From the NCBI RefSeq assembly GCF_965641715.1, contig NZ_OZ282453.1: 64,000 bases of DNA, one strand, 5' to 3'. Below the pieces are notes generated by a model. It saw nothing but the letters and a program-made list of their open reading frames with translations, ran no database searches and was not told the origin of the DNA. The position numbers and the translations under genes were made by a program. The number at the start of each line of letters is the position of its first letter. Within the stretch, counting starts at the first letter, position 1. Source of the DNA: Escherichia coli. GTDB taxonomy: Bacteria > Pseudomonadota > Gammaproteobacteria > Enterobacterales > Enterobacteriaceae. Below are positions 45,338-45,960 of the stretch, in pieces.

Positions 45338-45960
45338 CGAACTCCTCGCGCTTTATTATTGTAAAAGCACAACACCTTTTATACTCATATTAATTAACGA
45401 AACACTGAAACAACTTGATTTATTCTTCGCTCAAATTCACTTGTTCAAAAAGATTATATTTTATACCCACAACTGTAGCATAAATAATATTATCAAAAGT
45501 CAAAGCTGGGACTATCAAATTTCGCTCATTTTCAAAAATACAACGTAATTTTGGCAATCATCTTAATAGCAGGATCTCTTATCGCATGTGAAAAATTTGT
45601 AATGATTAGACAATAACCGCGTTCATTTATCACGCGTTATAAATGTGAAACTGGCTTCTTGCAGATGCTCTTAACCTCTACAGGAGGATTTATACCACCA
45701 TTTCAGAACTATCATATTTACCTTAAATGATCATTTCAGCCATATAACACGCTCAACCTCACAAATGGTTTACACTGTCTATTGTTTGGGTAATTTAAGT
45801 AAGTCAGCTACGAGCAACCTTGAGTGGGTAGCCAGCAATGGACTCAAACCCAATCAGGTGTTCAGATTGTTTCAGAATTGTATTAAAAACAATGTATTAA
45901 ATAATCTGATAGCGTTTGGTCGTAGTGTGACGCAGACAGCAAGCTAATAAGGAAATGATT

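Follow-up and report, generated by a model that had tools for sequence, protein, structure and literature searches.

In the Escherichia coli chromosome analysed here, 623 bp separate the starts of two divergent open reading frames (ORFs), namely the GTG at 45337 of an orphan pentapeptide-repeat gene on the minus strand and the ATG at 45961 of ybjP on the plus strand. The question raised by this locus is what such a gap (45338-45960 of a 64,000-nucleotide stretch, hereafter the window) contains, and from which promoter ybjP is expressed beside it. The gap is a composite intergenic region, made of a fast-evolving left half and a conserved right half that holds the ybjP promoters and leader. It is probable that the insertion of a genomic islet destroyed the ancestral ybjP promoter, that the right half now supplies promoters and leader in its place, and that the left half is the fast-evolving region upstream of the islet's cargo gene, the pentapeptide-repeat gene mentioned above. 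An earlier note, made from the letters of the window, had described the region as about 620 bp of AT-rich non-coding DNA, unusually long for E. coli, lying between the divergent starts of the orphan ORF and ybjP. This description stands: the GC content of the gap is 34.3% against 50.9% for the whole window, no RefSeq feature is found under it in 1128 carrier genomes, and it is the longest of about 47 intergenic gaps in an annotated 49-kb stretch of strain Sakai, the next in length being 544 and 457 bp.

Replacement of the ybjP promoter

The insertion was delimited by BLAST comparison with K-12 and with a strain lacking the islet, the alignments of which stop at 43385 and resume at 45943. The islet so defined (43386-45942; 2557 bp, about 32-34% GC) stands in for 46 bp of an ancestral 125-bp ybjQ-ybjP spacer, and the 623-bp gap is islet DNA except for its final 18 bp. 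The same spacer measures 125-127 bp in other Escherichia and in Salmonella and is 93% identical across genera; the short spacer is therefore the ancestral form, and the islet was inserted with replacement of the DNA at the site. The origin by insertion put forward in the earlier note is confirmed by these alignments, the region being absent from K-12 and not identical in it.

In K-12, the ybjP start site at -56 is preceded by gCTATTAT, and neither this element nor the start site varies from E. coli to Salmonella. K-12 ybjP is RpoS-dependent (Lacour and Landini 2004, as cited in 10.1101/2025.03.19.644130). The islet junction splits the gCTATTAT -10 element, and carriers read GCCATGTT at this position. 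The ancestral ybjP leader is retained only as the last 18 bp before the ATG (45943-45960, plus strand), which include the ybjP Shine-Dalgarno (SD) sequence AGGA at 45950-45953. A rewired ybjP promoter is thus supported, because the ancestral RpoS-type -10 element straddles the junction and was destroyed by the insertion.

Primary 5' ends of strain EDL933 have been determined by triplicate Cappable-seq experiments covering two growth phases in each of four media (Zehentner et al., PMC10469882). The EDL933 start sites were mapped to the window, the 60 nt around each of them being identical in both sequences. Three start sites are given for ybjP, all on the plus strand and all within islet DNA (PMC10469882 Table S5). 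The first (EDL933 1033012, window 45784) yields a 5' untranslated region (5'UTR) of 177 nt and is used in exponential phase in lysogeny broth (LB), M9 and salt and in stationary phase in salt; the second (1033014, window 45782; 5'UTR of 179 nt) is used in stationary LB and stationary acid; the third (1033043, window 45753; 5'UTR of 208 nt) is used in exponential salt and in stationary M9 and salt. These three leaders of enterohaemorrhagic E. coli (EHEC) compare with a 5'UTR of 56 nt in K-12 (same table). The mapping of start sites in a carrier strain, which the earlier note had proposed as a check, is therefore available in published form, and it agrees with the suggestion made there that the insertion had rewired the ybjP promoter.

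Two start clusters can be distinguished. P1 (45771-45784, plus strand) has the -10 element TACACT at 45771-45776, 5-7 nt upstream of 45782/45784. P2 (45741-45753, plus strand) has CATATAAC at 45741-45748, 4-6 nt upstream of the start at 45753. No recognisable -35 element was found at P1 or P2. The YbjP protein is detected in the O157:H7 proteome despite the loss of the ancestral promoter. Mapped 5' ends, -10-like elements and sequence constraint all identify this DNA, on the EDL933 data, as promoter and 5'UTR of ybjP.

The comparison with the K-12 RpoS promoter shows both likenesses and differences. The downstream gene, its SD sequence and its start codon are the same, P1 consists of a TACACT -10 element without a -35 element, and P2 is used in salt and stationary conditions, a pattern that may be compatible with sigma-S. 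Unlike in K-12, the leader has an additional 121-152 nt, P1 is used in exponential LB and M9 too, and the carrier sequence itself is unrelated. The locus also resembles known cases of promoter capture by inserted DNA, such as the outward promoters of insertion sequences (IS), in that a native core-gene promoter was destroyed and starts inside the insert drive the gene. It departs from them in that the islet has no transposase, inverted repeat or target duplication and in that the leader is long. The region is accordingly a clean but ordinary promoter replacement, a known kind of rewiring by acquired DNA, and represents no new kind of element.

The proposed course of events can be summarized as follows. 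An AT-rich islet of 2.56 kb, confined to E. coli and Shigella, inserted in the conserved divergent ybjQ/ybjP promoter region, thereby removing the ancestral RpoS-type promoter along with the replaced base pairs. Carriers transcribe ybjP from the islet clusters P1 and P2, with leaders of 177-208 nt. Selection would maintain the right half (45635-45942) as the sole promoter and leader left to ybjP, and the left half would be a rapidly changing spacer that serves as upstream region of the pentapeptide gene, which would be silent in laboratory culture.

Conservation of the right half and its possible explanations

The islet occurs as three allele classes. The window is of the A-type, as is L008; the B-type (L006, L011, L012, L013 and L020 among the alleles compared) is about 94% identical to it and was found in 682 genomes, and the C-type (L005, L009 and L019) is about 85% identical and was found in 19. 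A search of fragment clusters for alleles farther removed brought up L019, which belongs to the C-type, and L020, a variant of the B-type. Between the A- and B-types, the left half of the gap (45338-45634) differs by 6.6-7% and the right half (45635-45942, plus strand), which comprises the ybjP upstream region, the promoters and most of the 5'UTR, by 0.3-1.0%; the corresponding values between the A- and C-types are 25% and 7.5%. For reference, third codon positions of the flanking core genes differ by 3.5-13% (A against B) and 8-16% (A against C), and those of the pentapeptide gene by 4-6% and 28%. The left half also contains indels, a 9-bp deletion among them. Conservation is pronounced around the promoters: the 113 nt from 45701 to 45813, which hold both of them, carry 3 substitutions in the most divergent (C-type) allele against a neutral expectation of at least 11. 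From 45757 to 45813 there is no substitution in C-type alleles, and among the 12 alleles only positions 45761 (L011) and 45789 (L012) vary, in one allele each. In strain CUWW06 (L010), an IS1-associated deletion removed the cargo gene and the left half and kept 45628-45942. The former cargo-gene and left-spacer site is occupied there by IS1B, and the deletion ends at about 45628, just outside the conserved segment.

Several sequence features were observed in or next to the right half. A palindrome at 45624-45645 (CATTTATCACG/CGTTATAAATG) lies at the boundary between variable and conserved DNA and is not conserved in the C-type. A second palindrome, AAATGATCATTT at 45725-45736, contains a GATC site just upstream of P2, and two repeats ending in ATTTCAG (45690-45706 and 45723-45739) are found 33 bp apart. 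The palindromes and the repeats could be candidate regulator sites, although they were matched to no regulator.

Selection on a promoter and leader is not the sole conceivable cause of this conservation. The right half might instead be conserved since the 60-aa ORF at 45765-45947 (plus strand) encodes a real protein, translated from the P2 transcript and co-transcribed with ybjP, an explanation that we regard as unlikely. The ORF corresponds to 'hypothetical protein Z1096' of EDL933 (old RS04965); annotated as a gene there and in many GenBank records, it was dropped from current RefSeq. The P2 start (EDL933 1033043), attributed to the old gene RS04965, lies 12 nt upstream of the Z1096 ATG. However, the P1 starts are located 17-19 nt downstream of this ATG, so that P1 transcripts cannot encode Z1096, and no other start is listed for exponential LB, exponential M9, stationary LB or stationary acid, which make up four of the eight conditions. 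The frame is intact in all 12 alleles, including the C-type with its 8% divergence, but this is a weak argument since only about 4% of substitutions create stops. Of similar ambiguity is the pattern of substitution: variable sites are synonymous and non-synonymous in a ratio of 10 to 9 where 22-29% synonymous would be expected (nominal P 0.003-0.024; ratio of non-synonymous to synonymous rates, dN/dS, about 0.3), but the excess fails six-frame correction, one minus-strand frame gives 8 'synonymous' changes of 19, and the changes at codon positions 1, 2 and 3 number 1, 6 and 8, position 2 being nearly as variable as position 3. In the C-type allele L009, a 13-bp duplication leaves the Z1096 protein and its stop (a 61-aa form, as in L005) unaltered.

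Other observations weigh against a translated Z1096. The ORF has no SD sequence (duplex energy +1.9 against -6.2 for ybjP), and the earlier note had rightly remarked that it lacks a convincing ribosome-binding site. Z1096 is absent from the enterobacterial small-ORF (smORF) supplement. It is also missing from the Sakai RIBOseq (ribosome profiling) novel-ORF tables, and the EDL933 RIBOseq supplement has no entry for it, these two being lists and not raw coverage. No homologue was found outside E. coli and Shigella, the AlphaFold2 model is of low confidence (predicted local distance difference test score, pLDDT, 58.7), and conservation is strongest before the ORF and at its start, not in its body. 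Most likely, Z1096 is an open frame that occurs by chance in the ybjP leader. A related candidate, a 20-aa upstream ORF (uORF) at 45838-45900 considered as a leader peptide, was rejected: all six of its changes in the C-type are non-synonymous, and the leader peptide that the earlier note had thought possible consequently finds no support in the divergent allele.

The L009 duplication deserves mention in its own right. It is a tandem duplication of AAAGCAAGCCAAT in strain MFDS1019527, placed at 45936/45937, just upstream of the ybjP ribosome-binding site, and it lengthens the leader.

A stronger version of the promoter reading combines a 'promoter lock-in', whereby the islet is kept for having captured ybjP, its cargo decaying freely and the 300 bp beside ybjP being preserved, with a Z1096 microprotein made only from the P2 transcript induced in salt and stationary phase. 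This combination appears rather doubtful; if it held, carriers would differ from K-12-type strains in the timing of YbjP and in its co-products.

It is improbable that the whole 623 bp is a neutral AT-rich spacer in which conservation of the right half stems from recombination with the adjacent ybjP core and in which the promoters are fortuitous. Recombination does occur at this locus: L015 is a C/B recombinant with its breakpoint at about 45757-45813, and the ybjP 5' end can be identical across classes (C-type L005 and B-type L006), so that the locus is a mosaic. AT-rich DNA also readily yields promoter-like sites, of which a scan found 6 against 3.6 expected. A neutral spacer is nevertheless difficult to reconcile with an A-B divergence of 0.3-1% in the right half while both flanks have diverged, the left half by 6.6-7% and ybjP third positions by 3.5-5.8%. 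The ybjP starts are reproducible in triplicate and regulated across eight conditions (PMC10469882), YbjP is made in O157 without the ancestral promoter, and the IS1 deletion in CUWW06 stops just outside the right half.

It is very improbable that the region holds an independent small RNA (sRNA), as the earlier note had thought possible, or that the long ybjP leader contains a cis-acting RNA element, for example a thermometer or a riboswitch: the best Rfam match in the region at a permissive threshold reaches 17.9 bits against a cutoff of 45, which is at chance level, the scan gave no terminator-like site, and the Hfq-CRAC (crosslinking and analysis of cDNA) supplements hold no Hfq-bound RNA at these coordinates. 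No separate sRNA start site in the region appears among the start sites listed in the accessible part of PMC10469882. The evidence from folding is divided. The P1 leader folds better than its shuffles (z = -2.57, 2 of 200 shuffles being as good), and in an RNAalifold consensus no C-type substitution breaks a pair and one GC-to-UA pair is compensatory; this consensus, however, was fitted to the data. On the other hand, the independent minimum free energy (MFE) structures of two allele classes differ by 66-86 base pairs, the same substitutions placed at random give an MFE of -43.1 +/- 4.1 against -44.1 observed, and the number of broken pairs is not significant against random placement (P 0.06-0.26). 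Only an AU-rich imperfect hairpin at 45862-45909 (plus strand, in the ybjP 5'UTR), with an 11-bp outer and a 5-bp inner stem, appears in the predicted folds of both allele classes; its stems are invariant and its two substitutions fall in the loop. It is not terminator-like because it has no U-tract.

The replacement of the ybjP promoter by selected islet DNA thus remains the probable explanation, and several points have to be set against it. A simple promoter scan missed both P1 and P2, the -10 elements of which are imperfect and come with no evident -35 element. The start-site data originate from EDL933, a strain with a split cargo gene and 99.5% identity in this region, and not from the strain of the window. 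Orphan start sites, those assigned to no gene, were covered as far as the consulted part of the PMC10469882 tables extends, and further start sites may exist. The low A-B divergence of the right half could be due to a short recombination tract instead of selection, since the locus is a mosaic and L015 is a recombinant. Finally, H-NS occupancy and silencing of the left half are predictions from base composition.

The islet, its cargo gene and the left half

Of 5426 complete E. coli genomes, 1128 (21%) carry the islet, always on the chromosome and always at the same site. Carriers include O157:H7, O55:H7, O145:H28 (100% identical to the window) and SMS-3-5, and gene calls indicate that Shigella sonnei, S. 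flexneri and S. dysenteriae carry it as well; it is absent from K-12, from other Escherichia and from Salmonella. In the 64-kb window, in which the order of genes is ybjS-amiD-ybjQ / ybjP-artPIQM, the islet is the sole stretch below 38% GC. By its presence or absence at a fixed site and its deviant composition, it is a genomic islet. No target duplication, junction repeat, inverted repeat or mobility gene (transposase or integrase) was found at the islet, and no similarity was detected between the islet and the 46 bp of K-12 that it replaces. Divergence among the three allele classes reaches 19% in the gene and 25% in the left spacer; such deeply diverged classes suggest an old polymorphism or perhaps import from an unsampled lineage.

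No donor of the islet was found among the species-representative genomes, plasmids and phages searched. An apparent donor, a 'Collinsella sp.' metagenome-assembled genome, was rejected: its 2972-bp contig L007 (JAIJJM010000403.1) is 97% identical to the islet gene, which suggests binning contamination. Matches to the PLSDB plasmid records NZ_CP141089.1 and NZ_CP134663.1 were discarded likewise, these 4.9-Mb records being evidently mislabelled chromosomes.

The O-islands of O157:H7, reportedly described by Perna and colleagues in 2001, are said to be strain-specific segments replacing short K-12 segments. The islet resembles them as a small AT-rich segment that is absent from K-12, replaces a short K-12 stretch at a conserved position and contains Z1096-Z1097. 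Unlike them, it is not specific to O157, being shared by about a fifth of complete E. coli genomes and by Shigella in the form of three deeply diverged classes.

Both genes that flank the islet are affected. The promoter of ybjQ (43001-43324, minus strand) was struck by the same insertion: the K-12 ybjQ start at -76, the likely -10 element of which is GATAAT on the opposite strand, lay inside the replaced 46 bp. In EDL933, transcription of ybjQ starts within its upstream region (43325-43420) at -34, in core DNA (window 43358), and at -78, in islet DNA (window 43402). On the other side, ybjP (45961-46476, plus strand) encodes a DUF3828 lipoprotein that is a partner of TolC. Carrier ybjP alleles start MRYRSLSLLIPCALLLSAC (signal peptide, 45961-46020), and the K-12 frame opens ATG CGC TAC AGC AAA TTG ACA ATG (MRYSKLTM). 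The start of the signal peptide therefore differs in addition to the promoter. An antisense start inside ybjP was also noted (EDL933 1032702, window 46094, minus strand), which is used in M9 in both growth phases and in acid and salt in exponential phase. It is directed toward the spacer and the pentapeptide gene, which lies about 757 nt away; its transcript could be antisense to the 5' end of ybjP or serve the cargo gene as a very long leader.

The cargo gene (43535-45337, minus strand) encodes 600 aa from the GTG at 45337, which is served by a GAGGAG SD sequence at 45342-45347 (anti-SD duplex -8.4 kcal/mol). The Prokaryotic Genome Annotation Pipeline (PGAP) sometimes picks an ATG 33 nt downstream, at 45304; the product then has 589 aa and the gap measures 656 bp. 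The product matches Pfam Pentapeptide_4 below cutoff. Among 1.84 billion protein representatives, one full-length cluster, from E. coli, was retrieved together with weak pentapeptide-repeat matches, and searches of PDB and NCBIfam returned weak matches of this same kind only. The gene is intact in the window and frameshifted or split in 9 of the 15 loci inspected. It is split in O157 into ECs0949 and ECs0950 (Sakai) and in EDL933 (Z1097), carries a 7-nt indel near 44100 in strain C325, which is 99.9% identical (damage region about 44000-44110), and is frameshifted in C-type strains and SMS-3-5. In an EHEC isolate adapted to d-serine, z1097 acquired an insertion at codon 411. The searched literature on ECs0949, ECs0950, Z1096 and Z1098 contains nothing bearing on 45338-45960.

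Of the gap, only the hypervariable left half (45338-45634, 31% GC) is plausibly the upstream region of the pentapeptide gene, the SD sequence of which it contains together with a less diverged patch at about 45470-45530. The best sigma-70-like match for this gene, predicted at 45489-45518 on the minus strand (TTGATA-18-GATAAT, 10/12), lies inside this patch, and neither of its hexamers varies in any allele. No start site for the gene (EDL933_RS04970) is listed for the eight EDL933 conditions in the available part of PMC10469882.

To judge from their AT-richness, the left half and the cargo gene are plausibly silent in laboratory culture through binding of H-NS. The islet resembles xenogeneic targets of H-NS/StpA by its 32-34% GC over 2.6 kb in a genome of 51% GC, and by the lack of any cargo-gene start in the laboratory conditions, as far as the consulted list extends. 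It differs from such targets in that the AT-rich block is actively transcribed toward ybjP in its right-hand 200 bp, and in that the gap shows no enrichment of A-tracts or helical phasing. The earlier note had spoken of poly-A/T tracts typical of curved DNA, a view that the counts do not sustain: the gap has 10 A/T tracts of at least 4 bases, 4 of at least 5 and none of at least 6, the first figure comparing with 9.7 +/- 2.8 in mononucleotide shuffles, and the AA/TT autocorrelation of the gap is devoid of 10-11 bp phasing. The literature searched yielded no H-NS/StpA chromatin immunoprecipitation (ChIP) or hns-mutant dataset for a carrier strain.

Consequences for carrier strains

In about one fifth of E. 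coli genomes, including O157:H7, O55:H7 and O145:H28, and in Shigella, the ybjP/ybjQ promoter region, the conservation of which extends to Salmonella, has been lost. Carriers express ybjP from unrelated islet promoters, with a leader three- to four-fold longer. YbjP binds TolC in a 3:3 ratio inside the AcrAB-TolC pump (10.1101/2025.03.19.644130, 10.1101/2025.10.29.685381), and its recent recognition as a TolC partner makes the replacement of its promoter somewhat more relevant. The locus offers a natural regulatory variant of an efflux-associated gene that is directly comparable between strains, and what has been established on the regulation of ybjP in K-12, namely its RpoS dependence and its start site, is not transferable to carrier lineages without checking.

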